From the NCBI GenBank assembly GCA_032718475.1, contig JAUCBJ010006632.1, positions 12,596-76,595 on the forward strand: a stretch of 64,000 nucleotides of DNA. Reading direction: 5' to 3'. Positions 13,966 through 53,068 of the stretch are shown piece by piece. The notes under the pieces are model-generated. The model worked only from the letters and a program-made list of their open reading frames with translations. It made no database searches and was not told the origin of the DNA. The DNA is from Nemertoderma westbladi. Taxonomy: Eukaryota; Animalia; Xenacoelomorpha. Within the stretch, counting starts at the first letter, position 1; each line of letters opens with the position of its first letter. The position numbers were made by a program, and so were the translations under genes.

Positions 13966-15309
13966 GTTTGTATGTACAGTTGAATGCCTACTGCTATATT
14001 ACAGTCTAAGCAAGTCTAGTAATTCAGTATTAACTGCTAGCCTAGTAATTAACTACCGATACTGCTACTCAGTGCAGCGTGATATATATAATATATTAGA
14101 ATACCGGTATGCTTATAGTATATATAAGTATTATTACAGACTATGTTTATCACAGAATACCGGTATAATTTTAGCACAAATATATATAAATATATAATAG
14201 GCCTATCGGGAATACCGGTATACAGCTTACAGTTTGTAGTATATATAATTCTGGACTAGAATTAATTACAAGTACCGGTATAATTTCAGCCTAAATTTAT
14301 AGAAATAAAGATAATAGGCCTATCGTAAATACCGGTATATCAATTATTTTAAATAATTGAATTTCTGAACTTTAAGGGTTACTTGGTTACTCTACTTACT
14401 TTATTACCGTTATTTGAGCAGTAGTCCAACTGATATTGAGACCTAATGGTTATATGGTAGGCCTACTATTTATAAATCGTTAGATTTGATTTATAATATA
14501 TATATACCCGTTTTAATGGGTTTTGTCAATGTTTGAAATAAATGTTATTATTTCTGGGGAGTAATCACTACACAAAGCGGTGCGCTTTCAGTGAAGTGTT
14601 ACTTATAGGACACTAAAACAAATAATGCTAATTTACCTAAGTTACTTAATACTACAAATTACGTACAATTCGGGTGAGATTACAATCTCTAAATAAACAC
14701 AAAAATTTACAAAAAACACAAAATACGAATTTTTAGGGTAATTTTACAAGAAGTCTACAAACCAGCCTAACAAAGGGTTAGAAATCTGGTTATTACAACG
14801 GACAGGGTACTACGGTATTTGAAAATAATAAGTAGTAGTGAATACACTGCGCTGTCCAGATAGGAAAATACCACCGCCTGACGACCTATAGCCGTATCGC
14901 TATAGGTTCTACGTTATGTATCACGGAGTGTTCCTACCTAGAAGTTAATAGAGCTAATCGAACATGCCTATCAACCACTTTACAACACAAATATAATGCC
15001 TACACTAATTACTTTCGGAAAGCACTGTACACTAAACCCTAAATTAGGTACGAGTACTTGTACAACAGATAATCAGTAGTTAAATATACTTGAACAGTTA
15101 AAAGAACCACGGCATCTGCTGGAGTAACCGGTGCACAAAATCACCAGTCTTTACCTACGCCTAGCAGCCCGTGTAGTACCGGGGTTAGTTTAACTATAAC
15201 GGTATGTACAACAAACACAATTACTGTAGGAACAAACTTGGGGAATGAATGTTGTGAATAATCGCATAAACTCTGAATAATAAATATTACGCAACGCGTA
15301 CAAACTACT

Positions 15310-15865
15310 CAAACAAAATGCAGACCAAATACCGACAGACTACCATCAAGCCTAAACAAACTACGGTATATGCAGACTCCGAAATGATTAGGTAGTATGC
15401 GTTCTAACCCAGTAGTACGACTTATTCTTTAGCTGGGGGTTTACCTTATAGCATTTGGCTGCCCCTACTTCCTAACCGTACTTAATCGGACAGGTGCTCT
15501 ACACACACTACAATCCGTTCAGACCTAATAACAGCCAGACAATTATCCAGCCTACAAATTATCTAAATAAATATTATACGCTACCTGTACAGACTTACAC
15601 AAACAAAGTACAGACCAAACGATGGCAGACTACTATCAAGCCTAAATAAACTACAGGACATGCAGACTCCGAAATGATTAGGTAGTATGCGTTCTAACCC
15701 AGTAGTACGACTTATTCTTTAGCTGGGGGTTTACCTTACAGCATTTGGCTGCCCCTACTTCCTAACCGTACTCAATCGGACAGGTGCTCTACACACACTG
15801 CAATCCGATCAGGCCTAACAGCAATCAGACAACAGCTCAGCCTACAAATTGTCTGTACAATCTGA
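15310..15865. repeat. Tandem duplication with 290-bp period in the B 5' leader
   Basis: tgcagactccgaaatgattagg.. at 15371 and 15661, near-identical over >170 bp. Confidence 0.9.
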
Positions 15866-16211: not shown

Positions 16212-16222
16212 ATATCCTTTAA
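16212..16222 (-). promoter_or_regulatory. Non-tRNA primer-binding site of B (TTAAAGGATAT), complementary to LTR segment 16966-16976
   Basis: Abuts the 5' LTR end; no TGG; perfect 11-nt inverted repeat with the LTR interior. Confidence 0.75.
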
Positions 16223-17416
16223 TGTTCGCGCTTTCAGACCTTTGGCAGTTTAACCCGCCAAATTAGGATGTCTTCTAGATATTAAATGGCCTTTTAGCCT
16301 ATGACAAGTATTTGATTCACTACACTAGTCGAAACCAATCTGTGCGCGATCATTCACCCGCTGGTTATACCCGGGAGATTGGGTTCGACGGCTTAATCTT
16401 ATTGCTATGTAAGCCTAATGTATTATTCGACTGACAGTATTATATAATCTCTGACAATATTATTCACCTTCGGGGAATATTAACAGTTCCTTTAGGACGT
16501 GGCGCTCTATCTATATAAACAGAGTTATGACTTAAACTACTCACAACGATATGGTTTAGTTATAATTCACATATATGGCGCATTCTTTAGGAAATGCTTC
16601 TTTAACAGACTCACTCATATACAATGCTGCACAATACTGCACACTAATCTGCCGATCTTCACTGATTTTAGTCACATATAAAAGGAACACAGACTGACTC
16701 ATGTAGGGTCTATCAAATAACATTCGATTCACTTCAAACCACTTTAACATAAGTCACAATCGTTTATCTGTAACCCTTCTCTCTTACCTTCGGTATATCA
16801 AGAATATTGGGTTTCGGGGTTATTTATCGTTATTCCAAATATAATAATTCATCAACCATATTATGAATAACTGACAGTAAATAGCAGTATAAAACAACAA
16901 CTGAACACTGATTGTTATGAGTTTGCAATGTTTCAGCAGTTTGTATGGTCAGATCAGGTCAGCAGTTAAAGGATATATGTCCTTATAATTAAACCTACTA
17001 GTGTTGGGCTAAAAAGCAGAAAAGCACAAAACACTACAAAGCCGTTCTTTCGTGGCTTTGAAACTCGTGACTACTACTCTATACGAGGATACCAACTACA
17101 CTTATTCCACGAAGCTCCCGTTCAACACAGAGAAAGAGCAGTGAGATAGGAAAAATTCAGTTCAGTAGCTCTGTGATAGGTCAAAATCAAGGCTAACTCA
17201 AATTCTATTGGGAGATACAAAAACAGGGCTATGACGCAACCTTCCTAGGCTGGTTGGCCGATTAAACAGAGCCCAGATACCTGCGTACAGCAAATCAGCC
17301 AATAAGCTGGTAGCTTGCACTATTTTAACTATAGATCCCTTTTTGAGTATTCTAGCGACCGGGGGGGAACTGGCCAGCAAAGCAAACGAACCAGTTATCC
17401 CACAAAAGCTTTTACA
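16223..17416 (-). repeat. 5' LTR of element B (1194 bp)
   Basis: Direct repeat of 807-2000; lies upstream of gag on the minus strand. Confidence 0.96.
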
Positions 17417-22018: not shown

Positions 22019-25000
22019 ATGACTGAGTTGATAGAAGATGATCTTGGTATCAGGGAGCGATATACCCTACCGTTGCAAGCGTTTGTTGATAGCTTAATAT
22101 GCGGCGACGATAGTCCCACTACTACGGAGGACGATGGCCGTTATATCGAACCGCCAATGTCGAAGGAACAACTCACGCGTGAATTGGACTATAGAAAATT
22201 CACCGCTCGCTATACACATCGTAATGGTACGTATATGGTCATCCTATCGATTTACACGATACGGACGATGTAGACACCGAAAGGGAAATGGTTCTATTTA
22301 AGTATCATACCCAGCGGAGTCGGAAAGATAAACCGAGAATCGAACACAAGAATTCTATTCGAAACCGACTCGAAAGAGAAGACGTTGAAGAGCCGGATAA
22401 ACGCAGTGACTTCAACGAATATCTGGAATTTTTGAGAGAAACATATCTCAATATTGCCAGTCAACAAAATCTAGAAACTCGATATCCTCAAGGTATACAT
22501 CATGACCCTATGATAGAACTCAAACGGCTCTATTTCACTATGATGTACCTTACCGCCGATCGACCGCTACCTGTTGTCCCGGATAGCTTCGAACAGATGG
22601 AGGAAATTGTAAAACTGGAGAACGATCACCCGCGTTTCCCCTACAGGACGTGCGTCTTTGGTATTATTGCGATGAATGCCCTAGACCCAACCAGCAAACG
22701 GAAAGACATAAACATCCGCGGAGACGTTGCACTAAACACAGTTTTACTCGCTATACTTACGGGAGTTTCGAGCGAAACTTGTTCGACGTATCACCCACGC
22801 TCGCTCGACTCAAACGATCCTTAAATAAACCCATGATCAGAGTTCCGGAATACTCGGTTAGACCTCCTCACTCCCTAGTAAGACCTCAAACTCTTGATCC
22901 TAATAGTATCACGGATCCTCCTGAACTGTATTCACTGTTCAAAGGTCTTGTGTTACCCGAACAATTAATCGGTGGCACTCCGGTAGTGGGCTCTCTAGAT
23001 ATTCGCCCATCCTACCTAGCCGGATTGGGACGCGGACATCTAATATCGCCGTTCAACCCATACAATCGTCCCGGTTTAACCCCGATACAACCCGTCACCA
23101 AAGTCAAGGAGAGCGTTATACGAAATGCGTTAGACTCTATTCGGCAGAAGATCGGAAAAGGAACTTACGATTGTTTAGAGAAACACAAATTGCAGCAACA
23201 AGTCCAAGCAGTGAAGGAGTTGGCCTTACCCCAGTTCGATCAAGAAATCAAGAACCTCGAGGAAGACATCGAACTTGGAGAAACCTATTCTCTACAAGAG
23301 TTTTTAAATGAACGCTTACAACGACAAGCGGAGGAAAATCAGCTCGAGGAGAAACACATCGAAATGGATGAGAGAGAAGAAGCAGCTTTAACCCAACCAG
23401 AAGCTCAAATCCTTATGACTGATCTCTATTCCAAAACCATCATTCATCCCTCAATGGTTCCCAATTTCGGAGACAAACTCTTCGCAACGGTACAACCCCA
23501 ACTGGTTGATATCAACCTAAGATCCCGAGATCTTATCGCTGACGCTCCTATGTTACAGTGTCTGCCAATCGAGGCCGCTTGTGTCGACGGTATACTCGTT
23601 GAACCTCCGGACAATCGAGCGGATCTTGTCCGTCGTATGGTACACGAGGTCAACATACGCGCTAGACCTTTACCAAACTCGTTTTATGGGATCAAAGACC
23701 ACCCTTATTATGTCAATCTAACTCAATATTATATGGTAAAACCTGAAGATCCGACACATAGTCTAAGGTTTCTACCACTAATAAATCCTCTCAACCTTGT
23801 CGAACTCGAACAATTGCAGAAACATCTGGATCAGTTAGTAAAAGTAAACTCATTCAGAAAACCCTACAATGTTTCCAGAATAGAGAAGGATATAACGACT
23901 CCATATAATCTCGATGGATTTATTAAAACTCGATTAGTCCATTGGAATCTCGACGTATTATTCGAGGAAGAGAGAATACAAAGATATGGAGATGTAGAGA
24001 CGTATACTATACAGTATGTGGCGAATGCGCCACCTTGTGGCATCCGGTGGGGATTACCCTAGAGAACGCCACTAAAGAGTGGAACAAAACTCTTAACATT
24101 ATCGAAATGTACGGAGTTGTCACTTATGATAACGAAGGTAGCGTTCCGGTCGGAGAACTGGGAACTACGCGCATGATACATATACGAGGACTATCTGGTT
24201 CTACCCACGTGTTTACTCGAGCGTGTTCCAACATGATTGATTATTCTTTTGAGACTCTCACCGAGATACAAAAGAAACTCCGACATGGACAATTCGAACT
24301 CGTGCAGCGTTACGTCACCAACACCGAGCGCAAACCGGCCATGGGTATTGATGGATTGATGTTACCCCAGCCCGTGCCGAGATGTTGTTTAACAAAAGAA
24401 TCCTTAAAATCGGCTCAGCTGTTTATGGAGATCTCCAAAACGACTTCAGGAACATGGAGAATATCCCATATCCTTTCGTAGATATCCAGCTGATTGCTCC
24501 CTGGGCAGAAGGCCGAGGTTTCTTTCGAACTATGTATGCCAATACACCCAGCGGCATCAATAAAGTACAACGAACCTCCATCGGACATCTTGCTTTTCAA
24601 GAATACGGATGGAATTTCAAAGTCAGAAACCCTATCAACTATCAACAAGTATATGGAGATCATTATTCTCGATTATACTTCGACGGACCATTGACCGCAC
24701 CTAGCGTCGTGTATAGCTTCATGAGCGTTCCACTTCGTCCCTCATTAGCTATATACACTATCTTCGAAAACGCCGCACTTGTCGGTTGGCTAGCCGATGT
24801 GTGCAGTCGTACTATACGCGCCCATCCCTTGATACTTGGAACTAAACTCGCCAAGCTAGATAAACACAATAAATTCATCCGCTTTGAATGTTTTAGGCGA
24901 TTCCTGACTCCGTTCCATAACGTTGATAGTCAGTTCAAGGACCGCGCTCTGACCAAGCTCAGCCAAAGAGACTCAGCTGCTGAGAAGTTAGACAGCGCTG

Positions 25001-25743
25001 GATTCGCCATTTTCAAAGACATTTGTATACAGAACTTACATTCCTCTGTTATACAAAGACCTCGAATCCCCATGGGTTATTCTATCGTGGAAGTTCAGAC
25101 ACTGGGTTCGCTTGAGGAGACAGCTACGCCTACCTCAGCTATGCAATTGGAAGACGAACCAATATGCTTAGAAACCGAGGAGATTCAGCCCACAGCGCCC
25201 CGGAGCAGAGACAACGACTACGTCTTGGAATGGTATCAAGGTCCACAATGTCTCACTGCGTACGATTATCAACATGCCAATTATGTTTCTAGGAAACGTT
25301 GCCGATTGTGCGCATCTTGAGACCATTTCACCCCGGAGTACTCCAACGTGCCCTGCTCCTACTTCCATGAACAGCCTATGATGGAGATCTATTGTGCATA
25401 TTGTAGACTCAATGACTTGCACATTTTCGCAGTCTGCCCCCAATTTATGACTCAATGCCATCATTGTCAGTTTAAAGGACATGCAAGTTTTGATTGCCCT
25501 TTCAATCGCGATCTGGAAAGCGTAGATGAAATGATTACCCTACGCTATATCCGAGCCTGGGAAGCAAACACAGATTTACATTGTGAGTCACGTCATCGCT
25601 ATTACCCTGGACGTGCCTACGAAGGGGTTTATGCATTCCACCCGTACCTATTCGCGTCCGTGGAACAAAAATCTTGCACGCCGAGTTACGAACTAATGAA
25701 GCGTGTTGGCGAGAATATTTCGACCAAATTTGTTCATAAATAA
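22019..25743 (+). pseudogene. Element A accessory ORF3: novel N-domain, DEDDy-type 3'-5' exonuclease and 3 CCHC knuckles (frameshifted)
   Basis: YDNEG (24124), LKIGSAVYGDL, FVDIQ, SIGHLAFQEYGWNFK, YTIFE; CRLCAS.DH..C, CAYCRLNDLHIFAVC, CHHCQFKGHASFDC; collinear with C 39677-43392. Confidence 0.82.
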
Positions 25744-26956: not shown

Positions 26957-29140
26957 TGTTACGGTATATGGCGCTGTATCCACAGTATTAGTCCATTATG
27001 CAGTATGCAGTATTAGTCCATTATGCAGTATGCAGTATTAGTCCGTTATACTGTACGTAATATTAGTCCGTTGTGCAGTATAATTATTTAGATAAGGCGC
27101 AGTGTGGTGACATTTAGGTAAGGAAGTTAAAACGCCCATATATTTTGCATCCATTCATTTTGTATAGTATGTAGCCCTACCTACGTAATTTTGTATTAGG
27201 ATATATGTAGATAGTTCCAGGGTAGCGAGTTTACTCGGACCCTGGATTTTGTGCTTGCTGATATTAGTTTGATAGGGCTAGCATATAGGGACGCTGTCCT
27301 GGCCATTCAGCAGCCAGAGACGTGATCCATTACCATATATGGTAATAATTTGAGGGCATAGGGCTACAATCCGGTCTCCTTATTGGATTAACTGCTTCCA
27401 GGTTGGTTTAATGCTAGCATGGACTGGAGAGCCAATGGGAGAGCGATTGAGTCACCTTATTGCATCACCCCATCGGGATCACCTATAAATTGGCGGTGTG
27501 CCGGTAGGGCCTTTTGTTGTTCATATGTTCATGCCTTATCACATGACACACCCCTGTTACAATTTACTTGCTGAGCTGTCTCTAATTTTGTATTAGGATA
27601 TCGTATTTTCTGCAATTTGCTAATTTTGATTAATTTCTTGGAATGATTTGCTAGTACGATTACTTTGCTTGTGTTTCTCAATAATTCCTTCGATTACTGC
27701 AAATTACAATCGAACTATGATTTCTACCTTTGATTGATGGTTCTATGTGATTCTTTTCTGCGCAATAATCCCAAGGGATTCCTGAGACTGTCAGACTTTG
27801 TGATTTGCATGCGCCGCTACGGTAGCTATTAGCATCATGGAGGGCTAAGGTGCCAGTGGGCGGTGGGCGCATCGGGGGATTGAGCGACTAGGAGAGAGCG
27901 GAGGATTCAAAGCGGGCAACGCTGGCCAGGGTCACCGTTGCCGCCGGGTATCTTGCACTGCGGCACGCAGACCGATCGCCGGTACAGTATCTAGGGGGCT
28001 GATGATCCAGGTTTTGTCTCTATTTAGTATTAGGGGGGCAGGAATTGGGTTAGTTAGGAATCCTAGATGTACCCGGGAGAGGCCTGCGCGTCCGCGTATT
28101 ACAACGTTGAGTGTGGAGTACGAGTAGTGAATTGCACAATTGTAAACTGTGATTTCTAACGCTGATTGGTGTGTTATTGAAGTGTGCCTAAGATTACGAA
28201 TGCTTAGATAGGCGCTCTTTTCCTTTGATTGATTTCTATTTCTTAGTTACAATAATTAGTTATTGATTAGGTCAAAGTAATACGGCAATTTAGGCTATTA
28301 CTAGCGAAACCTGTTGCGTGATAAATTAGAATTACGTATTCTGGAACTCTTAGTAATTAGTACGCTGTTAAATATTTGTGACTGTAATTAATTAGTAAAA
28401 AATTAAGAATTAGTACGCAGCATAGCGGAGAGTAGCTAAGGTAATAATTAGTGTACTGTAAACTATTCACGCTGAGCGGTTATTTGCATTAGCGGGCAAT
28501 CAGCTAGAACGCACTATTCGGTACGCACGATACGCTAGTAATTTTGCTGGCCTAAAGCCAGTCGCGGGCAGTTTTAGACTCGGAGTGGTATTATCCACGT
28601 AGAAACAGATACTGTACCATTTTGATATTTTAAATATTCTCGCATTCACACATTACGTTAGGGAACCTCCAGTATTCGCGATTAGAAAGACGTAGGTAAT
28701 AGCGTGCTTTAATAGTGATAGAATTAGGCGTAAGAATACTCTGAGTGCAAGGCCTCTCGCACTCGTCTTAAGTAAACTTAGGGAGCCGACTCGGGTTTAT
28801 TGTTTTGGTTATTCCTGCGTGGCTCATAGATTCGAACAGTTAGCTCTCTATCGAGCAATCGGTAGAGAAAGGAACAAGCGATTTTGCAGGAGTTGTGTAA
28901 ATTTAGTAAAATATATTAGCGGACGGCAGATTAGCGCCATCTAACGGTAAGTAGCGGTTTGTATTTAGCAACCCTTACAATTTAGTAATATCACGCTCCT
29001 GAGCCCCTTTACTTAACAGTAGAGCAGTCTTTGTGTCTTATTGGTTAGACGAGAACTTATTAGGTTGGCAGAAGGATATTAACGGGTATTGGTCTGTTCA
29101 ACAGTTCTGCTGTTAGTATAGAGGTCGCGGTTGTTTATCA
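26957..29140 (+). repeat. 5' LTR of C (2184 bp)
   Basis: TG..CA; direct repeat of 45013-47193 with a few substitutions and small indels. Confidence 0.96.
27432..27490 (+). promoter_or_regulatory. Putative Pol II promoter in the C LTR (CCAAT 27432-27436, TATAAAT 27484-27490)
   Basis: Consensus motifs with plausible spacing; not validated. Confidence 0.5.
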
Positions 29141-29150
29141 GTAATACGCG
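29141..29150 (+). promoter_or_regulatory. Non-tRNA primer-binding site of C (GTAATACGCG), complementary to LTR 28093-28102
   Basis: Abuts the LTR end, no TGG; exact 10-nt reverse complement CGCGTATTAC in both LTRs. Confidence 0.75.
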
Positions 29151-30469
29151 TTTTTGTTTTGCTGTACTGCGTACAGTAAATACGAATTAGATTACTGTAT
29201 TAGGTACTGTACTGCGTACGGTGAGACAGAGAGTATTCTTAGGCTGATTAGTTTAGATTACTGATACTTCGTATCAGTAATACGCGCATATTGCTTTGCT
29301 GTACTGCGTATAGTAAGGCAGATAGTGTATTCTTAGGCTGATAGTAGTATCACAGTATTAAGTAATAAGTTGGAGCACGTGATCGTCTGCTGTAGGCTAT
29401 AGGCTAGCGTACAGTAAGACATTGAGTTTATTCTATTAGGTTGTTAGTTTAGATTACTGTATTCACTGGCTGCGTACAATAGTACAGTAGTACATTAGGC
29501 TGATTGTTGTTACTGCGGACGGTAGAAGGACATTTGTTTGCCGTACCACACACAGTATCATTAGGCTGTTAGGTTGGTGTACTGTTTTACTTACTGTGCT
29601 GCATACAGTGAATGTACGGTAGTGCGTTTTGCTAATTGCGAATACAGCAGTTCCTTAGGCCTTAGGGCAAACAGTAATTAGTAAGTTTTTTGAAAATTTT
29701 AGCTAGGTTTGCGAGAATTCAGTTTTCGGTCAAAATTATTTTGTAAAATTCTAGAGTTTTGTACCGGTATGTTAGGTAACCGCTTAGTTATTTTATACCA
29801 TCTGGAGATACATGGCAAGACGGAACTTCTGAGTTTGGGGTTTGTGTGGGTCTGCGGGTTCGGTTTGCAATCAGCGAAGGGCCTGAATCTTTGGACGCGG
29901 ACGTGGAATCTCACAGCAAACAAGGTTGGTTGTTCTGTTGGCACCAGTGTGTTTGTGGAAGCAGTAAAAAATTACCGGTTGTTTAACTGCGAAGCTGAAC
30001 TCAATTTATTAGTTAGGATATTTAGGTTTAGCCGGCCATGGTTTTTTGAATCGCTCAAGTTAGAGAGAGAGTTAGAGAGAGTCGCAACCCGAAGATGTAG
30101 CCACGCGCTAGTGGATACATATAATATTTGAAATTAAAATTACGTTGATTGGAGCTATATATATAAAATTAGAAATATTCGGGTGGCAAGTTTATTTTGA
30201 ATATTTTGTATTAGATTCAAAGTTATTTTGTGCTATACCGGTATTTAATACTATATAGTAGCTATATAATAATATTTTTTGTTTAAATATTGTGTTAGTA
30301 TTTGCTATAACTATATACCCCATTAAATTCACAATATTGCATTGCGAATTTATTTGACATTTGGACCAACTGATTATTTGACAAATAATTTGACCGTATT
30401 TCGGTTAAATTATAATTATATCTCGAACTTTTGCGAGATTTTTGCCAGAAGGCAAATATTATTTAGACT

Positions 30470-33400
30470 ATGAGTGTCTCAGACAAAGAGGCACTAGAGG
30501 ACAGCTATGAGACGGCGGCTGGACCGCCGACTGACGATAGCGTAAATATTACTGTTGATGACAATGCCGACTATGACGACGCAGCGAGCGACGCTGACGT
30601 AAGTGAACAGGAGGACGAGACAGTGACTAGTGAGGAAGAACAGCAGCCTCAGGTAATAGTATTAGGATCCCCTACCGCTACTGATAGGAAGGACTGTATG
30701 GCAGCCCGGACAGAGGTGAGTGATAGGGAGGGTAGTGTAGTAGAAGCGAGAGCCCGGAGCCCGGTTTCCAGACCTGTGGGTATGGTAAGTGCCGTGGTCC
30801 CGACGGCTGTTAGGAGTACCTGTAGTTCCCGAAATAATCCTTCAAGTCCACCAAGTGTGAGTCAGGTAAGCGAGAGAGAACTTGATATCGCGATAAAGAA
30901 GAAACTTCGCGCGCATGCCGGACATATAACTCGGACGGCGGACAAGGTAAGGAAGATGTTAGCTGACCCAGCGAACATCGGGAGGGTAGAGTTAGTAGAG
31001 ATTAGAAGAGGATATAACTCAGCGTTATTCAAGCAGACGGAGGAGCTTGCAGTCCTAGCGAAGAAGGCAGTAGAGTCTCAGTCGAGCGACGTAGCAACGA
31101 GGATTTACGACAGGGTTTTAGCAGCCTTGTTAGAGCACCGCGAGTTATCGGAGCGATTCCGACGAGTTAGGACGGAGAACTGGCTGCTATGGGCATCACA
31201 AACGCAGGCGACTCAGGTGAGTGACGCAGAGTTAAGAGACTTAGTGGAGCGGGAAGAGATCCAAGATAAGGAAGAGCGCCGTTATCAGAGGGAAGTTACT
31301 AGCTGGCTGATGCAGAATGGAGTGGTGGTACCAGGCCAGGTGCTACCGACGACGGAGAACATTCAACAGAGGACGTTGACTCCACCCGACGACGCATCTA
31401 GAGACAGCGGCGATTCCCAGGTTAGTCACGCGCGAGGTAAGGTAATATGTGCTAGATCCCTTGTTTCTCACAACTCGGCGGAGGAGAGAAGACGCCGACT
31501 AGACGAACAGCAGGCGGAAGTTTTGCGTGCACAGGAAGCACGGAAGGAAGCCGAGCGGGAACGGGAGCGCACACGTAAGTTGGACGCAGAGTTACGAGAG
31601 TTGGAAGAGATAAGTAAGCGCGAGCGAGCGGAACGCGAGCAAAGGGAATGTGAACTCCAAGCCGAGCGCGAGCGCGAGGAACTCGAATGCGAACAGAGAG
31701 AACGCGAACTCCAACTCGAATGCGAACGGGAAGCGAAGAAACGCGAACTCCAACTTGAATGCGAACGGGAAGCGAAGAAACGCGAACTCCAACTCGAACG
31801 CGAACAGGAAGCGAAGAAACGCGAACTCCAAGCCGAACGCGAGCGCAAGAAACTCGATCGTGAACAGAAGGAGCGCGAGCTTCAACTCGAACGCGGACGC
31901 AAGGAACGCGAACTCGAGATCGAGAAAAGAAGACGCGCATTGTATGAAGAAAAGGCGCGAGTGGAAGAAGAGAGCGCAGCGAGACGAGCGAGGGAAGAAG
32001 AAGAGCGTAAACTGGCGCAGTTGGAAAGTGCGAGATTAAGTTTAGAGAGCGAAGAACGGACTAGGAAGGCGAACGAAATCGCCGAGAAGGGGATGCGAAT
32101 GCTCGAAGAATGTGGGGCGAGTGTGGGGACAGAGTTGCGAGAACTGTTCGCACTGCAGAAGGCCGAACAGGAAGCGAGAACTCCGACTATACGCGAGTCA
32201 ACGACGACCAGAATTCCTATACCCGGTCCAGCTATTACGAGTACACGGATCGTTAAACCGTTCTCTACATATCGCACGCCAGTTGGTATTAGTGCTTCAC
32301 CTATCGCCCAGGATCTACGTCATCGGAACGCCGCACCACTGTATACCGAACGTGACAACGGAGAATTTAGAGAAGAAACTCCAACGGGACGAGTATTTGG
32401 CGAACCGAACCCGCGGGTTTGGAATACGCGGACGGAGCGCCGACCCAGTTCGACGGAGAACTTCCGGGTTAAACCGGAAGAGGGATCATATGAGAGACAG
32501 CGGATTACTCAGATAGAGCCGACTATACAACAGAACCCTAGCCAGGAATTTATTACGAGGGATGAGTTAAGTGCTAGTTTAGCGCAAGCTATATCGCCGC
32601 ACATCCAACCTATAACGGACATGCTTAGCAACCTACGGTTAAAGGAAGCAGCCCAGGTAAGAAGTAATTCTAATCCTAGCAGGCCTGAGTTAGATAAAGT
32701 CCAGCCTAGTCAACGAGTACGCATATCGGAGGAGACTATACCACATAGACCTCAGGTAAGGACGCCTGTCCCGAATATCCATAATCCCAATTTCGAAAAT
32801 TCGGCAGAAAGATTTATTGAGGAAGCTTGGGTCAGGGCCTCGGCGCGCAAACCATCGCGAGCGCTAAGGACTGACACTGAGTCAAGCGATGAAGAGGAAG
32901 AAATGAGATGTCAGAAGTCCCGAAACTATAAGGAAAGAAGGACGGACGCGGAGCAGGTAAGTTGGAACCACCGGGAAAGGACCAGACTTAACAACACTGC
33001 GGAACTAAACCATTTGTTAACCCGGAACGACGCAACCCTTAGGGACATAGGTAAGTTTGCTGCTAGGCAAGGACTGCCGACGCAGCAACCCCAGAAGTTT
33101 ATGGGTAACCATAAACATTGGAGGACCTTCAAAACCTATGTCGACGAGCAGCTAACCAACAGCACCTTTACTCCCAACGAAAAGTTCAACTATTTGCTTC
33201 AGATGCTCCATCGAGAACCTAGAGCCATTGCTGATAATTTCGTCGGCAATGAAAGAGCATTTGAGTTAGCGATGAAGATGCTTAGTGACATTTACGGGAA
33301 TAAAACCAAGATGGCGCAGTCGATAGTAGAAGACTTGGGTAAGGGCGGAAGGATTACAACTCCGTTAGAGCTGTTGAACTTAGCAAACGCTATTTCGAAC

Positions 33401-35530
33401 GCATTGGACATCTTGAGGACGGTGAATCTACCTCATCATGGTGATCACGCCGAAGTTTTGAAAAGCGTAATAAGACGTTTAAACATGCGTTACAGACAGA
33501 AATGGCGCAAATTAGAGAATAAGTTGGAGGGCCAAGGTAAGGTGTTGACACTTCAGCATATTCATGACATGATAGCCACAGACGCAGTAGCAGAGATGAA
33601 ATCAAACTTCTCAGAAGAGAATATGAGGGAGTCTAAACCTGTTACCGGTAAGTCTATGGTAAGTTTTGACGATGACAGGACCACTGTGACATTTAACTCA
33701 GTAGACAGATATAATTCGAATACCCCAGCCTTTAGATCAGACTCGCGAGTATGGTCAGGTGAGCGGTTAGATAGACCTAGGTTAAAGCAACAGGAGTTGC
33801 CGGATGGATTTGTAGGTTGCCAATACTGTTTACTAAAGGAGGTAAGATCTGACGACCATAAGTTAGATAGTTGCAGACGGTTCAAAGAATTAAATTCGGA
33901 ACAGAGAAGAGTTCAAGTGCGGACGTTGGACACCTGTTGGGCATGTCTTGCGCCAGGTCATGTACGGCGGCAGTGCCCGAACAGCAAGGACGGATGCATG
34001 GAATGCGGCAGACTACATCACAAGTTGCTACATGCGGATTTCCACACCCCAACGGACCGTTACTTACAGCGAAATCCTCAAAGGAAGGGGAGCAAAGAAC
34101 CCGTATCGATAAGGAGGAATACGTACACTGGCATCCAGGACGATGGTTACCAACCAGGTTCGTCGGACGAGGATGGCGAGTCGAGCGCGAGAGAAGTGAC
34201 CTGCCAAGGTTTCACCGCGGATAGTTCATCGACCAGCGCGCGGACGTATTTATCATCGGCCACGTCGGAAATATTTAGCGTGATTCCGGTGAAACTCACT
34301 GGCGATAAGGGATCGAAACGAATATATGTGATGCTGGACACTGCGTCCACATTATCGTATATCGACGAGGAAGTGGCGAGAGCCGTTTCTAGCTTCCAGG
34401 ACGCCGAGGAGATCCAAATAGAGTTGAAGTCTATGCATGGGGTAGGAGACCTCAAGGTACACAGAATTTCGGTGGAACTAGATTCCCTACTTCCGAGAGA
34501 CCAACACACTCGACAAGAACGGAAAGCTTTGCCATTGGACGGATTTAAGTGTCTAGCTATGAAGGGATTCGGCAGGCAGTTAGGTAAGGTGCCGCCGATG
34601 AGTCCCATAGCACAGGAGTATTTTGACAAGCTCAGGATACCCAGACACCAGGTAGGTTATAGGAATGTTTCTATGTTGATTGGTGCAGAACAGCTGATCG
34701 CACACCAGATATGGGAAACGAGACCAGCTGAGCCGCATGTCAATGGACCACATGCCCATAGGACCATACTAGGTTGGTATACACGAGTACCCATGTCTTA
34801 TGAGTTTACAGGTGGCGACAAGCCAATGGACAGATACGATGAATTACAGCCTATAATTCAACCACCGTTAGTAGAACCACCAGACATAGACGAGTTTAGG
34901 AGAACCTGTATTGACCACTATAGTGACTTTAGCGAGTCGGACGAGGAGTTGATTCCCGATAATGTTAGGTTGTCGGAACCACTTCACAATGACCGGACAG
35001 ATAGTGAACCCGAGGACTACTGTTATCAGACCCGTGGGTCTGGTTCAGCGGCCCACGCTACCTATTTGACTAACGTTTTGACTTATACAGACATAGTGGA
35101 GGGTCAAGTGGCTAAATATCGAGACCTAGACATTTTCCAATACAGTGAGGAGGAATTACAGAAGGAATTGATACGCCAGGACCTCGAGACAGGAGCCAGA
35201 ACCGTCGAATGGCTGGACAGGGACGCAATGGAACCCGGTGGATATGACCTAGCCATGTCTACTGATGAGAAGCGGTCGCTGGAGATGATGGAAGATACCA
35301 TACGTCTACTACCGACTGGACATTTTGAAGTTGGAATGTTGTGGCGTCGACAACCACCTAAGTTGGAGAACAACTACAGCTTAGCCTTGAAAAGATTAAA
35401 CGGAGTAAGGGCTCGGTTGTTGAGGAATCCAGGCATTAGGGAGAAGTATTGCGCCCAGATCAACAACTATTTCGCCAAGGGATTTGCTGGGAAGGTAGAG
35501 GACCCTGACTTAGTGACAGACCAGACTTAG
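30470..35530 (+). CDS. gag-pol: C gag-protease (long coiled-coil gag, BEL CCHC knuckles, protease)
   Basis: 1686-aa ORF; KFMGNHKHWRTF, CWACLAPGHVRRQC..CMECGRLHHKLLH, MLDTASTLSYI; ends in an in-frame TAG at the start of RT. Confidence 0.93.
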   Translation: MSVSDKEALEDSYETAAGPPTDDSVNITVDDNADYDDAASDADVSEQEDETVTSEEEQQPQVIVLGSPTATDRKDCMAARTEVSDREGSVVEARARSPVSRPVGMVSAVVPTAVRSTCSSRNNPSSPPSVSQVSERELDIAIKKKLRAHAGHITRTADKVRKMLADPANIGRVELVEIRRGYNSALFKQTEELAVLAKKAVESQSSDVATRIYDRVLAALLEHRELSERFRRVRTENWLLWASQTQATQVSDAELRDLVEREEIQDKEERRYQREVTSWLMQNGVVVPGQVLPTTENIQQRTLTPPDDASRDSGDSQVSHARGKVICARSLVSHNSAEERRRRLDEQQAEVLRAQEARKEAERERERTRKLDAELRELEEISKRERAEREQRECELQAEREREELECEQRERELQLECEREAKKRELQLECEREAKKRELQLEREQEAKKRELQAERERKKLDREQKERELQLERGRKERELEIEKRRRALYEEKARVEEESAARRAREEEERKLAQLESARLSLESEERTRKANEIAEKGMRMLEECGASVGTELRELFALQKAEQEARTPTIRESTTTRIPIPGPAITSTRIVKPFSTYRTPVGISASPIAQDLRHRNAAPLYTERDNGEFREETPTGRVFGEPNPRVWNTRTERRPSSTENFRVKPEEGSYERQRITQIEPTIQQNPSQEFITRDELSASLAQAISPHIQPITDMLSNLRLKEAAQVRSNSNPSRPELDKVQPSQRVRISEETIPHRPQVRTPVPNIHNPNFENSAERFIEEAWVRASARKPSRALRTDTESSDEEEEMRCQKSRNYKERRTDAEQVSWNHRERTRLNNTAELNHLLTRNDATLRDIGKFAARQGLPTQQPQKFMGNHKHWRTFKTYVDEQLTNSTFTPNEKFNYLLQMLHREPRAIADNFVGNERAFELAMKMLSDIYGNKTKMAQSIVEDLGKGGRITTPLELLNLANAISNALDILRTVNLPHHGDHAEVLKSVIRRLNMRYRQKWRKLENKLEGQGKVLTLQHIHDMIATDAVAEMKSNFSEENMRESKPVTGKSMVSFDDDRTTVTFNSVDRYNSNTPAFRSDSRVWSGERLDRPRLKQQELPDGFVGCQYCLLKEVRSDDHKLDSCRRFKELNSEQRRVQVRTLDTCWACLAPGHVRRQCPNSKDGCMECGRLHHKLLHADFHTPTDRYLQRNPQRKGSKEPVSIRRNTYTGIQDDGYQPGSSDEDGESSAREVTCQGFTADSSSTSARTYLSSATSEIFSVIPVKLTGDKGSKRIYVMLDTASTLSYIDEEVARAVSSFQDAEEIQIELKSMHGVGDLKVHRISVELDSLLPRDQHTRQERKALPLDGFKCLAMKGFGRQLGKVPPMSPIAQEYFDKLRIPRHQVGYRNVSMLIGAEQLIAHQIWETRPAEPHVNGPHAHRTILGWYTRVPMSYEFTGGDKPMDRYDELQPIIQPPLVEPPDIDEFRRTCIDHYSDFSESDEELIPDNVRLSEPLHNDRTDSEPEDYCYQTRGSGSAAHATYLTNVLTYTDIVEGQVAKYRDLDIFQYSEEELQKELIRQDLETGARTVEWLDRDAMEPGGYDLAMSTDEKRSLEMMEDTIRLLPTGHFEVGMLWRRQPPKLENNYSLALKRLNGVRARLLRNPGIREKYCAQINNYFAKGFAGKVEDPDLVTDQT
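31610..31920 (+). repeat. Coding tandem repeat (39-nt core, CEREAKKRELQLE) in C gag
   Basis: gaacgggaagcgaagaaacgcgaactccaact repeated. Confidence 0.85.
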
Positions 35531-35545
35531 CTTCCACACCACTAT

Positions 35546-38500
35546 GTGACTCACCCTGACAAGCCAGACAAAGTCCGAGTAGTCAACGACTGCGCAGCAG
35601 TCTATAGAGGTATGTCCCTGAATTCAGAGTTGATGGATGGTCCCAACCTGAATAACTATTTGATTGGAATACTGTTGCGTTTTAGACAGCGGCGATTCGC
35701 ATTTACTTGTGACATCGAGGCGATGTTCCACCAGGTAAGAGCCTGTAAGGCAGACCAGGATAGCCTTCGATTTCTCTGGTTTGAGAATGAAGACTTATCC
35801 GGCCCAGTGGTTACATACCAAATGTACGTTAGGATATTTGGCGCCCGCGATAGTCCGAATGGCACGCTGTTCGTTCTAAAGAAAACGGCAACAGCCCAGA
35901 TTGGTAAGTACCCAGTAGAAGTAATCGAGTCCATCTTGAGAAACTTCTATATGGACGACGGATTGGTGTCCAAGGACACAGCGGAACAAGCCATAGAAGT
36001 GGCTCACGGCCTGCAAGAGTGCTTGGCTACAGGGGGTTTTCCTCTAACCAAGTTCACTACTAACTCGGAGGCCCTATTAGAATCGTTCCCGGTAAAAGAT
36101 CGCGGGAGCGGAGACATTGAATTGGGGGTAGAACCAATCCCCATGGCGCGAGTACTGGGACTCGCTTGGAATCCGAACTCGGATAAGTTCCAGGTAAGAG
36201 TTAGATTTGAGCCCAGTAGCCCAGACAAAGTTTTGACAAAGAGAATTTGCTTATCGACATTAAGTAGACTATTTGACCCGATGAACTTTATCAGTCCGGT
36301 TATATTACAGGCACGAGCGTGCATGAGGAAAATTTGGTTGTCCGACTTAGAGTGGGACGAACCAATATCTCCTATACATGCAAAGCAGTGGAGGGAGTGG
36401 GAAGCCGAGTTGCATCTATTGAAAAATATAGATGTACCCCGTTCCTACTTTCCGAATCAGCTGGTATTTCCAGCTGATTTAGAACTGCATTTATTTAGTG
36501 ACCGGCTTTGGTATGGTAGCCTACCTTCGCCGAGAGGTAAGTCAGGACAAATTTGAGACGGCCTTTGTGACTTCTAGATCAAAGACAATGCCGGTCAAAT
36601 ATATGACTGTCCCTCGTGCAGAGTTACAGGCGGCTGTAGTTTCGGTCGAGGTAAGTAAGCAAATAACTGAGGAGTTAGACACGACATTGACCTTATTCTA
36701 TTGGACGGACGCATCCTTGGTGTTAGTATACATTGCGGCCGACAATATTGCACTAAAGACATTTGTGGCCAATAGACGCGCTCAGATCGTTGATTTTTCG
36801 ACGAAGGAACAATGGAGACATTGTCCGGGAGTGTTGAACCCGGCCGACATAACTTCGAGAGGTGCAATGCCGGCGGAATTCTGTCGGGAAGAGTCGCAGG
36901 AGTTTTGGTTGCATGGACCTGATTTTCTAACGAGGACACAGGAACATTGGCCAGAGCGACTAAAGATAGTGACCAATCCGATGCCTGAAGATGCAGAAGT
37001 CAAGGTGGAGAAAGTCTCTAAGTCGAAGTCTAAAGCCAAACTTAAGTCATTGGAGCGGCCTGAAGAGTCATTGGAGCGGCCTGAAGAATCATTGGAGCGG
37101 CCCGGAGACCTGTCAGACCAACAGACTTACGTGACTACTAGGTCCGGAAGGGTAAGTTATGACGTAAAACCACCCTTACAGACTAAACCAGAGTCACAGT
37201 TGGTAAGTGACGGACAGAAAATGACCGACACAATGGAGTCTTTGGTTTCCAAACCTGCGGGTTTGGATTCGAAACTTCCATTAGTTAGCGGACAACCGTC
37301 GCTGGCATTAGAGTCATGCAGTATTTATGACAAATTACTAAATTCGTCTGCCTCTTGGCTGACAATTTGTAAAAGAACTGCGTGGTTAAGCCGATACGTT
37401 TCGTACCTTTGTTTAAAACATTCGAAACATTTGAGAGAACCATTGAGCACCAATAGTGAGCGAATTCAGAAATTGAAACAACCTCTGACAGAGGATGAGA
37501 TTGATCAAGCGGAATTAAAGCATTTGAAGCATTATCAAATGTGTGCCTTCCCGAAAGAATTCCATCTATTATCGGCTCATCGACCAGTTCTCTATAAACC
37601 CCTTAGAAAATGGAGTCCATTAATCCATAAGGGTTTAATTTGTCATAGATCGAGAATCCAGACTGTCGACATAAACTCACAGTTTAGGTTCCCAGTGATA
37701 ATCCCTAGTCACCCAATAGAATTGCAAAGAGCGATTCTATGGGATATACACAAGAGGTTGCATCACGCGGGAAAGTTACACTGTCTGTCGGCAGCGAGAC
37801 AGCGATTCATTCTATTGCAGCCAAGCAGGGCAGTAGGCACTATGTACGACGCCTGTCTGGTTTGCAAGAGAGTGAACGCCAGAGTATTGGAACAGGAGAT
37901 GGCTGAACTCCCGGAAGCGAGAGTGCAGGCATATGACCCACCCTTTACGAATACAGGGGTGGACTGTTTTGGTCCGATTGAAGCAAAGAGTGGACGGCTG
38001 ACCCACAAGCGATGGGGTCTGCTACTGACATGTATGGCCAGTAGAGCCATACACATCGAGCGTGTGGCAGACATGTCGACCAAATCTCTGCTCCTGGCCT
38101 TAAAGAGATTTATGGCCAGGAGAGGACTAGTAAAGGCGTTCTACTCTGACAAGGGTACAAACTTTGTCGGAGGGAATAGCGAGTTGAACGCGGCTCATAA
38201 AGCAGCACAGAATAAGGAAATTTCTGCAGCACTTTTGCCGCAACGAGTAGAATGGAGATTCAATACTCCAGAAAGTCCTTGGAGAGGAGGAAGTTGGGAG
38301 CGTTTGGTTCGCTCTGTGAAGCAGGCCATTGCCAAAACATTGCCTGTGAACAAACAACTTACCGACGACGAACTGGTCACAGCTTTTATTGAAATCGAGC
38401 ATACCCTAAACTCGAGGCCGATAGCTATGTTGCCAGACGGTGTTGCATTAACGCCGAATCATTTGCTAATGCAGAGTCCAGCATTTCTTGTGCCGGCATC

Positions 38501-38912
38501 AGAACCCATTAGTGCCGACCTATATAGTCGTAAGAGCTGGAAAGTAACACAGTTTGTGGCGTACACATTCTGGGAATATTGGCGGGAATACTATCTTCCC
38601 ACCATATCCACCAGAACAAAGTGGTACAAAACGGTTCGGAGTCTCCAAAGGGGAGATTACGTGTTGATAACCGAACCCATTGTCAAGAGAAAGTATTGGG
38701 AGACGGGAGTGATCTTGCACACACACCCAGACGTGCAAAACATAGTGCGCACAGTCACTGTGAAAATTAGGTGCAAGTGTCCGCACCCAAAAAAGTGTAA
38801 AACTAATGGTTTACACACCTTGGACCGACCGGTCCAAGATATTGTGTTATTAGAGGAGACACGTATCGAGACGGGAGATTATAATTTGTCTCCTGCCTCA
38901 AAACTGAATTAG
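35546..38912 (+). pseudogene. pol: C pol (RT, RNase H, integrase); frameshifting deletion in the RNase H FSDAS motif near 36500
   Basis: GPNLNN, DIEAMFHQV, FYMDD, LHLFSD|GFGMVAYLR, NPADITSRG, TGVDCFGP, SDKGTNF, WRGGSWERL. Confidence 0.92.
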
Positions 38913-39676
38913 TGTTGGACGCAACTCACTTCGTATGCATTCCTCGTATGCAAATACAAGGAAATGCATAGGAGCGGGGTTGTGGTGATTTGCGTTGAGT
39001 TTTGTCTGGTGGGTATCAAAACAAAATTTTATTTCAAAAATTTTGGAAAAAATTAGAAAATTTTAAAAATTAGAAGTGAACCCAAGACAATTCCAGACGC
39101 TGTGTATAGACGCGTTTTAGAATTCGTCTATAGATAAACAGTAATTTGAAAAGTCGTGAAGCCTGGAAAATAGCATTTAGAAACCATGGTGACGGCTATA
39201 TTACGTAGGAGTGTAAATTGAGTTTAGCAACTTCCACAGATTGGTGCCAACAGTGCAACTAAGGTGCTAAAGGTTAGTAGCACCAGAGGGGTGCACGGAC
39301 CCCACTCAGTAGTTTGCAGGATGTGTGATGTTCGATTATCAAACCTGTGGGTTTGGTATAGTCGAGTATTGTGGCTATAGTCCTTTCTAACTACTGTAGT
39401 TTAGTACGAGTAATGGGAGTAGTTTGGGCATCAAAAAGTGAGTTGGTCACGGCCAGTTTATCTCCAAAGTTTTTGCGCTATGCATGGGAATAGGTTAGAG
39501 GATAGTTAGTTAGGAAGAGACGGGATCTAGAGAGTCGAACCTGAACTGCTGGAAGGCGGGGGGGGGGGGTTCGGGAGGTCTGTCCTTCGGCGACATCTAA
39601 CTGATTTACCCACAGTGTAGTTGGTTACGTAACGGCACTTATTGGGATATATATATATGTATATACGCGTAACATA

Positions 39677-42600
39677 ATGGAGAGGGATATTAGAGCGCAA
39701 CCGCGCAGAGGATTTACTGCCAGAGAGGAGGCGGAGCTACCATTCGCGCGACCAGGATGTAAAGACTCTAACGTTTACTACCATGGGCGGTCCGTGATGG
39801 AGCTGAACGGGAAGTATAAACCAAGTTATGATAAAGAATTACGGAGAGAAAGAATGAGAGCGTTGGGGGACCGGATGGAAGTCTTGCGGAGAGAGTATCG
39901 CACGCGGTATCCCTACGACTTTGCTTTGGACGTGTGCGACATTAGCGCAGATCCGGACGAGGAAATCGCACGACTATACCATATGAATATGTATTTACGA
40001 CATGAGGAGCCTCTACCTGCAGTCCGAGACCAGTTCGACGGAATGCACCTGTATCGGAGGACTCGAGGCGAGGATCAGGAGACGCCGAAAGTCTTCAGCG
40101 TATACAAGCTCTTCTACAAGTGTGGTGAATGCATGAATAAACAGGACGTGGCGATTCCCGACCGATTAGACGAGCAACATCCGGAACCGATATTAACGCG
40201 ATGTCCAGCTCACCAATTCCTTAGATACAACGAGGGAGGTTACCTGATGAGCAACCCGATGATCAGTATCGACTTCAGTGGAAAGCGACCTCCGAGACCC
40301 ATTACGCCGACCGTTACGACATTAGATCCGTATACGGAGATTAAACCCTGTTCGACACCCAGTTTGATAGAGACGGCAGCGGCCATTTTGCTGTACCGAT
40401 CCTACAAGGATCTAGAGGCGCGGCGCGAAGCGGCGCGGGACTCGGGTACCAAACCCGTGGGTTTGGAGCTCTCGAGTCCCTGGACTGCGTTTACTTCACC
40501 TCACCGAGTGAGAAGCCTCACACCTGAGCATCAGGACGACATAGACGCGTTGCGGCAGGAGGAGCGAGTGGCGAAGGCGAAAGAGTTATCAGGATAGCTA
40601 CTTATTAACAGGATAGCGGAGTATAATAAGACCGCGGATAGACATCAAGAGGAGACGAGGAGAGTGACCGGATTTGTTCCACAGGTCGTATCTCAACCCG
40701 GACCGGTGTATTATTCCGACGGCACCGAACCTGCGATATTAGTAGATCATCCGGAGTCGCGAGAAGCGATACGATGAAGATGGTAAGAATGGCGGACCAT
40801 TGGAACGTTGACTGTCTACGGGAAGTTTTATGCGCGAAGTTCTTGCGTGATGTCCCAATGCAGATCACAGATTACGACACTTTGGACAAGATTGGAGCTC
40901 CGGGGAAGGAGAGTAAGTTATTCGGATGGTTGGATAAGTACATCAAGGTATGGGTCGCGGTGGCTACATTCCCAGATGACGAGGAAGTAGACCAGACGTG
41001 GCTGAGGAGGAAGGGTTCTTATACCCGATATGATGACCACAAGGCGATCGAGCGCATGTGGACCCCATCAGATGAGATTCAGCGTCAGTGGAGGAAAACG
41101 GAGGAATCACTGCAGGATTGGAGAGTGATGTTCTACGACAATGAAGGAGGGTCCCATCAGGAATGCTTGACTAGCAAGTGTATTCAAATTCGTGCGGCCG
41201 ATGGTGTGACTCATGTGTTTATGCGTGTGAGGGCGGATCGAGAGAGACCGGAGCCCATCATAACGACACAATATCGGAAAGGGAAGGATCCTAGGGAACA
41301 GATTTTGGAGGTATGCAGGCGAGGAGGTATGCACGGAGCGGAGCGTATCGACGCCAGGATGTTACCAAAGAAGGTTAGAGAGGCTATTCTCAACCAAGAT
41401 TACGTCAAGGTGGGATCGGGAGTCCAGAGCGATTTGGAGAGCGACTTCAACGCCATGACTGATCTGGAAGATAGATTGCCGAGACCGTTTGTCGACACCA
41501 AGCTATTGTTGCTATGGGCACAGGATATTGGAATTTATAGGGAGTATCCCAACTCTGCCAAGACTGGTATGGGCTTTATAGCACACTTGTTGTATAATTG
41601 GGACTTTAAGTTGAAGACGCAAAAGAAGTACGAGGAGGCGTATGGCGAATACAACACGCCACCGGGAGCGGAGTTCAAATCCCACTTCAAGCGGCAAGCG
41701 TTAGTGTATTGGAACATTTGCGCGCCACCCCGTGCGTCGCTACAATATTATTTGGTGCTTGAGTCGAACACGGTGACTTGTTTATTAGCGGATATCGTTG
41801 CGCGAGTTTTGAAGCGTCATCCATTGGTATTCGGAGGAGATCAATACGTTCGCTCGAAAGGGGGAATCCAATCCGACGTGATGAAGCGTTTCTTAACCCC
41901 GTTCTTCAACCAATCGTTAGAGAATACGTCGATGGTGAGGAGAGGATTAGCGATATTCGAAGGAGTATATCGACAGAACATCGGAGATTTGGGAGACCGA
42001 CCGTCGATGGAATATCCGACGCCAGAAGCTTTGGAGAAGTGGTTCGGGAATCAAACCCGCGGGTTTGGTACTCCCTTCCACTCGGAGGCTGATAGACCTG
42101 TTAAGGAGGGCTGGCCGGAAACGTTAGTAGAGGTGTTCGGAGTAGATCTTCCGGTGGAGAAGACATATCCGAAACGAACGCGGGAGGAAATATTGGAGAT
42201 AGAGGACAAGGGCGAGGATGTTTACTTTGTTCCGGATCGACAACCGTTGACCGGAGAGGACGACATCGTATTAGACATTGGGAAGGAAGGAAGTGCGAAA
42301 CCGATTGGAGACCTCATATACGAGAGGGCCTGGTTTCCACAAGCGCGTAGGTGCAAATTGTGCGGCAGCACAAGGCACAATCTAAAGTCGTGCGACGCGG
42401 TAATAGAGGCGGCGCATAAGGTCTGTCGTTGGTGCAATGAGACCGACCATTCGTTTCACACGTGCACCGTCTTCATTTCTCAATGTGGATATTGTGGAGT
42501 AAAAGGACACCGTAGCGCGAGATGTCAGCTGCGAGATGATTCCTTTCAAAACCATAGCGCTAACCTACTTCGGGTGATGTTAGATAAGTGGGAGAGTGTG

Positions 42601-48671: not shown

Positions 48672-48680
48672 GTGATTAAA
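48672..48680 (+). promoter_or_regulatory. Non-tRNA primer-binding site of D (GTGATTAAA), complementary to LTR 48485-48493
   Basis: Abuts the LTR end, no TGG; exact 9-nt reverse complement TTTAATCAC in both LTRs. Confidence 0.72.
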
Positions 48681-53062: not shown

Positions 53063-53068
53063 TGGGCT

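Follow-up and report, generated by a model that had tools for sequence, protein, structure and literature searches.

Two oddities of the LTR retrotransposons at this locus, a PBS that matches the element's own LTR and an ORF with the look of a DEDDy-fold exonuclease, raise the question of how such elements prime reverse transcription and whether the exonuclease takes part. Self-priming is known experimentally from Tf1, in which the primer consists of the 11 bases with which the RNA begins. The earlier note had joined both oddities in one hypothesis, in which a self-primer lying inside the transcript would receive its 3'-OH from the element's own exonuclease. The internal position of the primer gained support from an upstream pairing arm in one element and from split segments in relatives, and the proposed link to the exonuclease did not hold among families outside the window (ORF present in 0 of 5).

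The BEL/Pao cluster of the window

The window, that is, the whole 64-kb stretch of DNA analysed, comprised a cluster of four BEL/Pao LTR retrotransposons, here called A, B, C and D. Their Pfam domains were DUF1759, Peptidase_A17, Integrase_H2C2 and DUF5641 (not all domains in each element), arranged in the Pao-type gag-pol order of protease-RT-RNase H-integrase, and B, C and D possessed TG..CA LTRs, a PPT and a short TSD, which was 5 bp long in all three. The LTR stretch complementary to the PBS is referred to below as the segment.

26957-47193, plus strand: element C, 20.2 kb, TSD ATACG
26957-29140, plus strand: 5' LTR of C, 2184 bp, TG..CA
45013-47193, plus strand: 3' LTR of C, segment copy at 46143-46152
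30467-38912, plus strand: gag-pol of C, BEL/Pao type, frame interrupted by one stop and one frameshift
39605-40597, plus strand: accessory ORF of C, 330 aa, family unassigned, weak homologue in A
17416-807, minus strand: element B, 16.6 kb, TSD ATGTT
16223-17416, minus strand: 5' LTR of B, 11-nt segment at 16976-16966
807-2000, minus strand: 3' LTR of B, segment copy ending at 1550
48129-61067, plus strand: element D, 12.9 kb, TSD ATTTA
48129-48671, plus strand: 5' LTR of D, TATA-like motif at 48398, Inr-like motif at 48431, segment at 48485-48493
60514-61067, plus strand: 3' LTR of D, segment copy at 60881-60889
62051-62779, minus strand: host fibrinogen C-terminal domain gene fragment

Element B sat inverted within its close relative A (window 1-25780), to which it was 80-83% identical (91% in the RT), and no LTR of A, including the 3' LTR, was found within the window. 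The RTs of C and D were 33% alike. Pol frames were interrupted in all four elements; the LTR pairs differed by two substitutions in B and nine each in C and D, and B is the youngest of the window elements. Both ends of the C 5' LTR recurred as loose ends in an independent sequencing run, and family C was very abundant, with a contig word depth of 1e4-1e5 against 35 in the flank, which gives a rough indication only. The accessory ORF of C was the second such ORF in that element, with a counterpart in A (22225-24062) and part of it retained in B; it had no match in Pfam or the ESM Atlas. Tandem repeats occurred at 15279-15854 (leader of B), at 50571-50832 and 56278-56789 (gag and 3' region of D), and at 26990-27090 (start of the C LTR).

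Primer-binding sites complementary to the LTR

The PBS of B, C and D started at +1 after the CA of the LTR, lacked a TGG start and was of the non-tRNA type, and it was a perfect reverse complement of 11, 10 and 9 nt, respectively, within the element's own LTR.

28093-28102, plus strand: candidate self-primer segment of C, 10-nt complement of the PBS
29141-29150, plus strand: PBS of C, non-tRNA type, +1 after the LTR CA
29277-29288, plus strand: second PBS copy of C, within a repeat of the leader, complementary over 12 nt to the segment in its 3'-LTR form
16212-16222, minus strand: PBS of B, 11-nt complement of its own LTR segment
48672-48680, plus strand: PBS of D, 9 nt

This complementarity exceeded chance in all three elements. 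A perfect LTR complement was found for 1 of 3150 interior words of the same length in B, 4 of 2960 in C and 3 of 2960 in D (0.0003-0.0014), and for 23 of 984 in C when spliced joins were also allowed; such joins gave no longer PBS match in B, C or D. As in Tf1/sushi elements, the PBS was complementary to RNA of the own LTR rather than to the CCA end of a tRNA, but the domains found here are those of BEL/Pao, not of the Ty3/gypsy chromovirus lineage to which Tf1/sushi belongs. The window held no tRNA genes and no Rfam matches, and hence no element-encoded tRNA primer.

Units of LTR end plus PBS were duplicated in the leaders of C (29272-29288) and D (48722-48760), and the second PBS-plus-arm unit of D, which begins at 48725, retained the upstream pairing arm described below. 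The 5' half of the C segment had a 6-nt duplication (28087-28092) in the 5' LTR of C but not in its 3' LTR. This duplication was polymorphic in the family, with about 59% of depth lacking it in one run and both forms common, so that this difference between the LTRs is uninformative on which copy primes. Relatives of D often had A at position 3 of the PBS (depth share 31%, 65% and 100% across three runs); among the rows listed, seven others lying outside the listing, the segment showed no compensating change. Just 5' of the segment, C (28048-28082) and D (48449-48484) shared the pattern GTTAGTTAGG..CTAG..GTACC(C)GGGA, and an ACCC-like motif at the same site in several relatives could base-pair with GGG right after the PBS.

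Segment and PBS of the window elements would form a duplex of only -7 to -13 kcal/mol. The 5' copy of the segment lay 97-1038 nt from the PBS and the 3' copy 6-17 kb, and the U5 sequence 3' of the segment reached 1040 nt in C and 743 nt in B. In equilibrium folding of the 5' region, under a model that excludes pseudoknot-like forms, the mean pair probability of the segment-PBS helix exceeded 0.5 in just two of the 11 full-segment folds, namely the spliced form of one outside locus (L003) and B with its RNA starting at the segment (P 0.66).

We evaluated whether such sites recur outside the window. Scans with an RT alignment returned 33 outside loci, and scans of viral contigs returned none. 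After truncated loci and those lacking a 5' LTR were left out, 14 loci with a readable PBS or LTR end remained, representing seven families. Six of these seven had a self-complementary PBS, and the seventh (L009) had a TGG PBS of tRNA type. In five families the complement existed only across a predicted GT..AG intron of the LTR (107-197 nt), with the junction near the centre of the match:

L002: 5+5 nt, intron 3667-3851
L013/L018: 5+6 nt, intron 556-717 in L013
L003: 6+5 nt, intron 220-326
L023: 7+6 nt, intron 1004-1200
L008: 6+6 nt, intron 5903-6044

The spliced complements totalled 10-13 nt, with nulls of 0-1 of 984, apart from L008, which was found by eye and then checked, carries no null and has an LTR ending in TA, not CA. 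The same LTR-intron layout occurred in L006, L011, L031 and probably L032, in which the PBS was unreadable or mismatched. The sixth family, L030, was intron-less, with identical LTRs, a TSD and a contiguous 11-nt match (null 0 of 494); its complement (6411-6425) starts at +5, 4 nt past the TSD-defined LTR end, unlike all other cases. Each self-complementary outside family had a distinct PBS matched by its own LTR, a pattern of covariation, and most PBSs here began with GT. The five intron-bearing families formed one clade (support 98) in an RT tree built without reference sequences of named BEL/Pao clades, and their PBSs all differed. In these relatives the spliced copy would pair at about -12 to -17 kcal/mol, against -2 to -5 kcal/mol, so that only the spliced copy could pair.

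An Inr-like motif, TCA[GT][TA], a pattern picked after looking, lay 87-110 nt 5' of the donor in all six LTRs tested, and the corresponding distances were 113-118 nt in L031 and 51 nt in L008. A[AT]TAAA followed the acceptor by 23-80 nt in eight intron-bearing LTRs; L030 had neither this hexamer nor an exonuclease. Among five copies of the L013 family with donor, acceptor and PBS, two matched perfectly and three carried one substitution (L031 in both LTRs), and across the family 7 of 7 copies shared one PBS while 3 of 7 loci differed in the exon-2 half of the complement (L031 again in both LTRs). L025, with an interrupted LTR and a diverged PBS, gave no self-match, and one half of the match was missing in L014 and in L020. 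BEL/Pao-type RT matches L029-L033, two of them with complete LTR pairs, lay in contigs filed under bacterial genomes, and are likely animal host DNA in those bins.

Where the segment lies within the RNA bears on how a primer could be made. The positions that the earlier note had given for motifs and segments (27432 for CCAAT, 27484 for TATAAAT, 28093, 48398/48431, 46152, 60889 and 1550) were all correct, as was its placing of a promoter candidate far upstream of the segment in C and of a motif pair about 50 nt upstream in D, all of these motifs being consensus matches only.

27432-27490, plus strand: candidate promoter of C (CCAAT and TATAAAT), consensus match only
28008-28027, plus strand: candidate splice acceptor of C, about 65 nt 5' of the segment
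48453-48477, plus strand: LTR arm of D upstream of the segment, in-register complement of 48688-48712 in the leader

The C 5' LTR contained other promoter candidates besides this one, and the D pair comprised AATATA (48398) and TCAGT (48431), again as consensus matches only. There was no TATA about 30 nt 5' of the segment in B, C or D. The note's failure to spot AATAAA in the three LTRs by eye was confirmed by a scan of the window LTRs, yet its absence is within chance (expected counts 0.95, 0.57 and 0.24); A[AT]TAAA was likewise not found in them. Candidate splice sites were located at 17009 and 17280 on the minus strand in B and at 28027, 27118 and 28947 in C. The candidate acceptors, which have donors farther 5', lay 33 nt (B) and about 65 nt (C) 5' of the segment; strong candidate donors downstream of the segment in B and C would, if used, skip the PBS. 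Contigs of one possibly-RNA run covered parts of the C LTR; no joint was seen in them, and they were uninformative on ends.

In D, LTR sequence reaching as far as 32 nt 5' of the segment was an in-register complement of leader sequence just after the PBS (-29.4 kcal/mol), around a 10-bp core of 48463-48472 with 48693-48702; none of the 423 background windows and none of the 400 shuffles reached this strength. The LTR block of this arm was one of two deeply covered blocks among D relatives. L030 had a similar arm (P 0.009/0.005). Of the nine families tested for an arm, only D and L030 reached significance, the others being B, C and the five spliced families. Whether the arm of D is a working helix or the trace of copying from a long primer, the partner RNA must reach upstream of the segment. 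In the split families, a 5'-terminal primer would require a first exon of only 5-6 nt. From the in-register arm of D and the split segments of intron-bearing relatives, the segment is probably internal to the RNA, not 5'-terminal, in these elements.

The exonuclease-knuckle ORF

Downstream of pol, C carried an open reading frame with a predicted exonuclease domain followed by CCHC knuckles, and broken counterparts were found in A and D; B lacked the ORF. The pol of B was broken too, and B may be complemented in trans.

40642-43392, plus strand: ORF of C with predicted DEDDy-fold exonuclease, open frame, domain at about 41110-41800
about 42350-42540, plus strand: three CCHC knuckles of C, within the exonuclease ORF
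23927-25740, plus strand: exonuclease-knuckle ORF of A, broken by a frameshift and a stop
57119-59794, plus strand: exonuclease-knuckle ORF of D, in pieces, Asn at the ExoII acid position

A HMMER search of a representative set found eight homologues of the C ORF with the same build of exonuclease-like domain and three CCHC knuckles. Word-indexed protein searches gave no match, no Pfam family matched the exonuclease ORFs of the window, and a single-sequence PDB search gave two spurious matches only. A profile of the domain matched EXD2 (E 4.9e-8) and then, weakly, Egalitarian and WRN, and the ESM Atlas assigned it to the PF01612 cluster (0.92). With a structure model of pLDDT 69, the best match by VIA-align was the EXO domain of Nibbler (Z 12.1, rmsd 3.4, 180 residues aligned), with the Pol A exonuclease, RNase D and WRN close behind (Z 11.2 for RNase D and WRN), and the best Foldseek matches were NrnC and EXD2. 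Comparison of the structure model thus gave a DnaQ-like fold. Nibbler, EXD2, WRN-exo and RNase D share this fold at 10-15% identity, several families lying within about 1 Z of one another.

The motifs of C were D-x-E (ExoI), D (ExoII) and Y-x3-E (ExoIII). C and A shared this set, in which Glu replaces the last Asp, as it does in two of five homologues; ExoIII aligned to EXD2 and WRN at a non-significant score only. An initial placement that left ExoIII of C without its acid was rejected, as the alignment of homologues places the motif 11 residues further on. The ORF of C, A and D is real, and on the structure model what it encodes is an exonuclease of predicted DEDDy fold.

If exonuclease and self-primer formed one system, as the earlier note had it, the two would be expected to occur together across BEL/Pao families. 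Searching the 33 outside loci with the exonuclease profile gave no match, and the distance from the integrase ORF to the 3' LTR was only about 150-770 nt in L001/L013, L002, L003, L008 and L030. The 3' region of L023 lay beyond its contig. The ORF was thus present in none of the five outside self-complementary families with a complete 3' region, so that a self-complementary PBS does not need a DEDDy ORF and the expected co-occurrence is refuted in that direction. A single system of self-primer and exonuclease is not supported by these sequence comparisons, and the exonuclease is likely an accessory gene that would not be needed for priming. Its most likely job is small-RNA or 3'-end interference or trimming, Nibbler being the best structural match, or fidelity in elements of 13-20 kb. 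The ORF accompanied large size in a small sample (20.2 kb in C, 16.6 kb in B and 12.9 kb in D, against about 6.5-7 kb in L002, L003 and L030). Proofreading nucleases of large RNA genomes offer an analogy for an association of this kind.

Routes to a primer and their wider meaning

Our explanation of the whole, held tentatively and at a little under even confidence, is self-priming by an internal LTR segment that is probably cut by RNase H, with the exonuclease as an accessory. Transcription would begin upstream of the segment, whose predicted position is at least some tens of bases into the RNA; the segment would then anneal to the PBS, in the relatives once the LTR intron has been spliced. 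The RNase H of the element, whose acidic motifs are present in C and D, would probably cut at the edge of the duplex and so leave a primer 3'-OH with a long 5' tail. As the tail would leave the geometry 3' of the segment unchanged, an internal segment should need no new enzyme. If the 5' LTR copy is used, strong-stop DNA would extend over no more than the sequence 3' of the segment; whatever lies 5' of the cut, the intron included, would be restored from the unspliced 3' LTR, so that the intron would be kept. Intron retention needs only one unspliced template copy, however, and does not decide between the 5' and 3' copies; likewise, a 3' splice site followed 23-80 nt on by A[AT]TAAA resembles a terminal exon and would suit a 3' copy, or a separate short RNA, just as well.

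Other routes place the cut or the primer elsewhere. In the scheme of the earlier note, pairing of the 3' LTR copy with the PBS circularises the RNA, and the DEDDy exonuclease removes the tail as far as the duplex. Such a role would suit the DEDD fold and acidic motifs of the protein, an apparently internal primer, and window LTRs that have no A[AT]TAAA where eight intron-bearing LTRs have one past the acceptor, and Rodriguez et al. suggested in general terms, in the Discussion of PMC5408684, that such ORFs might process the 3' ends of element RNA. We nevertheless regard it as unlikely, given that all five complete outside families do without the ORF, including L030 with its identical LTRs, no intron and no A[AT]TAAA; that B, the youngest element here, lacks it (though with its broken pol B may depend on trans complementation) and D has Asn at ExoII; that the missing AATAAA is within chance; and that the U5 sequence 3' of the segment is as long as 1040 nt in C and 743 nt in B, next to a duplex of only -7 to -13 kcal/mol. 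Priming by the 3' copy with cutting or trimming by RNase H or a host 3' exonuclease, instead of the element's DEDDy protein, would work without the ORF, and the 3' LTR is where one would expect splicing of a terminal intron that is coupled to polyadenylation, but the 3' copy lies 6-17 kb from the PBS as opposed to 97-1038 nt for the 5' copy, and the cap-proximal intron would have to stay unspliced, and we consider this route improbable as well. Doubtful to a similar degree is a strict Tf1 type, at least in B and C, with transcription beginning at the segment. Matches of 9-11 nt do resemble the 11 nt of Tf1, B and C have no upstream arm, and the B helix formed only with RNA starting at the segment; against this stand the arm of D, the lack of a TATA about 30 nt 5' of the segment in B, C and D, and the first exon of 5-6 nt that the split families would need.

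The primer might also act in trans, as a self-encoded substitute for tRNA: a short LTR transcript, in intron-bearing families spliced and polyadenylated within the LTR, or a second packaged RNA would anneal to the PBS of a genome that is unspliced, and RNase H or a host nuclease would cut or trim it. This possibility, though on the whole unlikely, is the likeliest of the alternatives: it would fit the terminal-exon layout within the LTR and the high copy number of family C, it would explain intron retention without selective splicing of one end, and the L013 family has a constant PBS (7 of 7) beside an exon-2 half that varies (3 of 7 loci, L031 in both LTRs). These substitutions may, however, be neutral decay, and no poly(A) hexamer lies near the segment in the window elements. 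That a host RNA, such as a tRNA half or other small RNA, is the primer, with the LTR match a regulatory hairpin or by-product, seems very improbable. Half-tRNA primers are known in copia lineages, as a passage of PMC6317226 describes, and most PBSs here begin with GT, but nine distinct PBSs match their own LTR, five of them across a splice junction centred in the match.

Priming from an internal segment, as we tentatively prefer, has its closest counterpart in self-priming as described for Tf1/sushi and predicted for the plant Tcn1 and TAR lineages in passages of PMC7175516 and PMC6317226. Tf1 and Tf2 of Schizosaccharomyces pombe, and the Tf1/sushi group of Ty3/gypsy, likewise have a non-tRNA PBS directly after the LTR with a complement of about 11 nt in their own LTR (passages of PMC7175516 and PMC6317226), and the RNase H of Tf1 makes its cut where the duplex ends, between bases 11 and 12 of the RNA (passage of PMC7175516). 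The elements here differ in being BEL/Pao, in a segment that is predicted to be internal, in the upstream pairing of D, in five related families with an intron-split segment, in LTRs of up to 2.2 kb and in their extra ORFs. For plant Tcn1 (gypsy) and TAR/Houba/Osr-1 (copia), which belong to separate superfamilies, self-priming is likewise predicted from sequence, and the passages of PMC6317226 on Tcn1 and TAR contain no BEL/Pao element and no internal or spliced primer. Passages of PMC6934838, PMC5006619 and PMC3601003 gave no case of BEL/Pao self-priming, the main text of PMC3118150, PMC554778 and PMC2996953, all BEL/Pao-related, yielded no discussion of PBS or tRNA by term look-up, and a literature search covering sources other than subscription papers and Repbase reports found, in the passages available, no report of BEL/Pao self-priming or a splice-built primer.

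The exonuclease has parallels of its own. Passages of PMC5408684 and PMC6431247 report DEDDy ORFs in rotifer Juno, Vesta and Athena/Terminons, with a proposed role in RNA 3'-end processing; in bdelloid Juno and Vesta (ORF3) and in Athena/Terminons the ORF lies downstream of pol, as here. Compared by description, the present ORFs differ in their BEL/Pao context, three CCHC knuckles and the ExoIII Glu of C and A. The terms 'PBS' and 'priming' do not occur in PMC5408684, and DEDDy ORFs also occur in Dada DNA transposons according to a passage of PMC3706591. On sequence comparison, the window likely presents a Tf1-like form of self-priming outside the superfamily of Tf1, together with a DEDDy-knuckle gene that was acquired separately.

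The two oddities are now separate, and the captured DEDDy-knuckle gene needs an explanation of its own, such as anti-small-RNA activity or fidelity. With a PBS of this self-complementary kind, it is understandable that PBS finders would miss these elements. A bolder reading, which we think improbable, is that a broad BEL/Pao lineage swapped its tRNA primer for internal RNA of its own LTR, which small elements splice and the giants of the window finish with the DEDDy-CCHC exonuclease; if true, splicing would, in the small elements, single out as primer one copy of the LTR or else a separate short RNA, and the giants, with an intron-less primer and no poly(A) signal, would have a fully self-encoded priming system. 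More generally, an internal and sometimes splice-built primer in BEL/Pao would, if true, be an independent route to tRNA-free reverse transcription; a splice-built primer would link replication to host splicing, and self-priming would remove the target site of tRNA fragments that is exploited in silencing.
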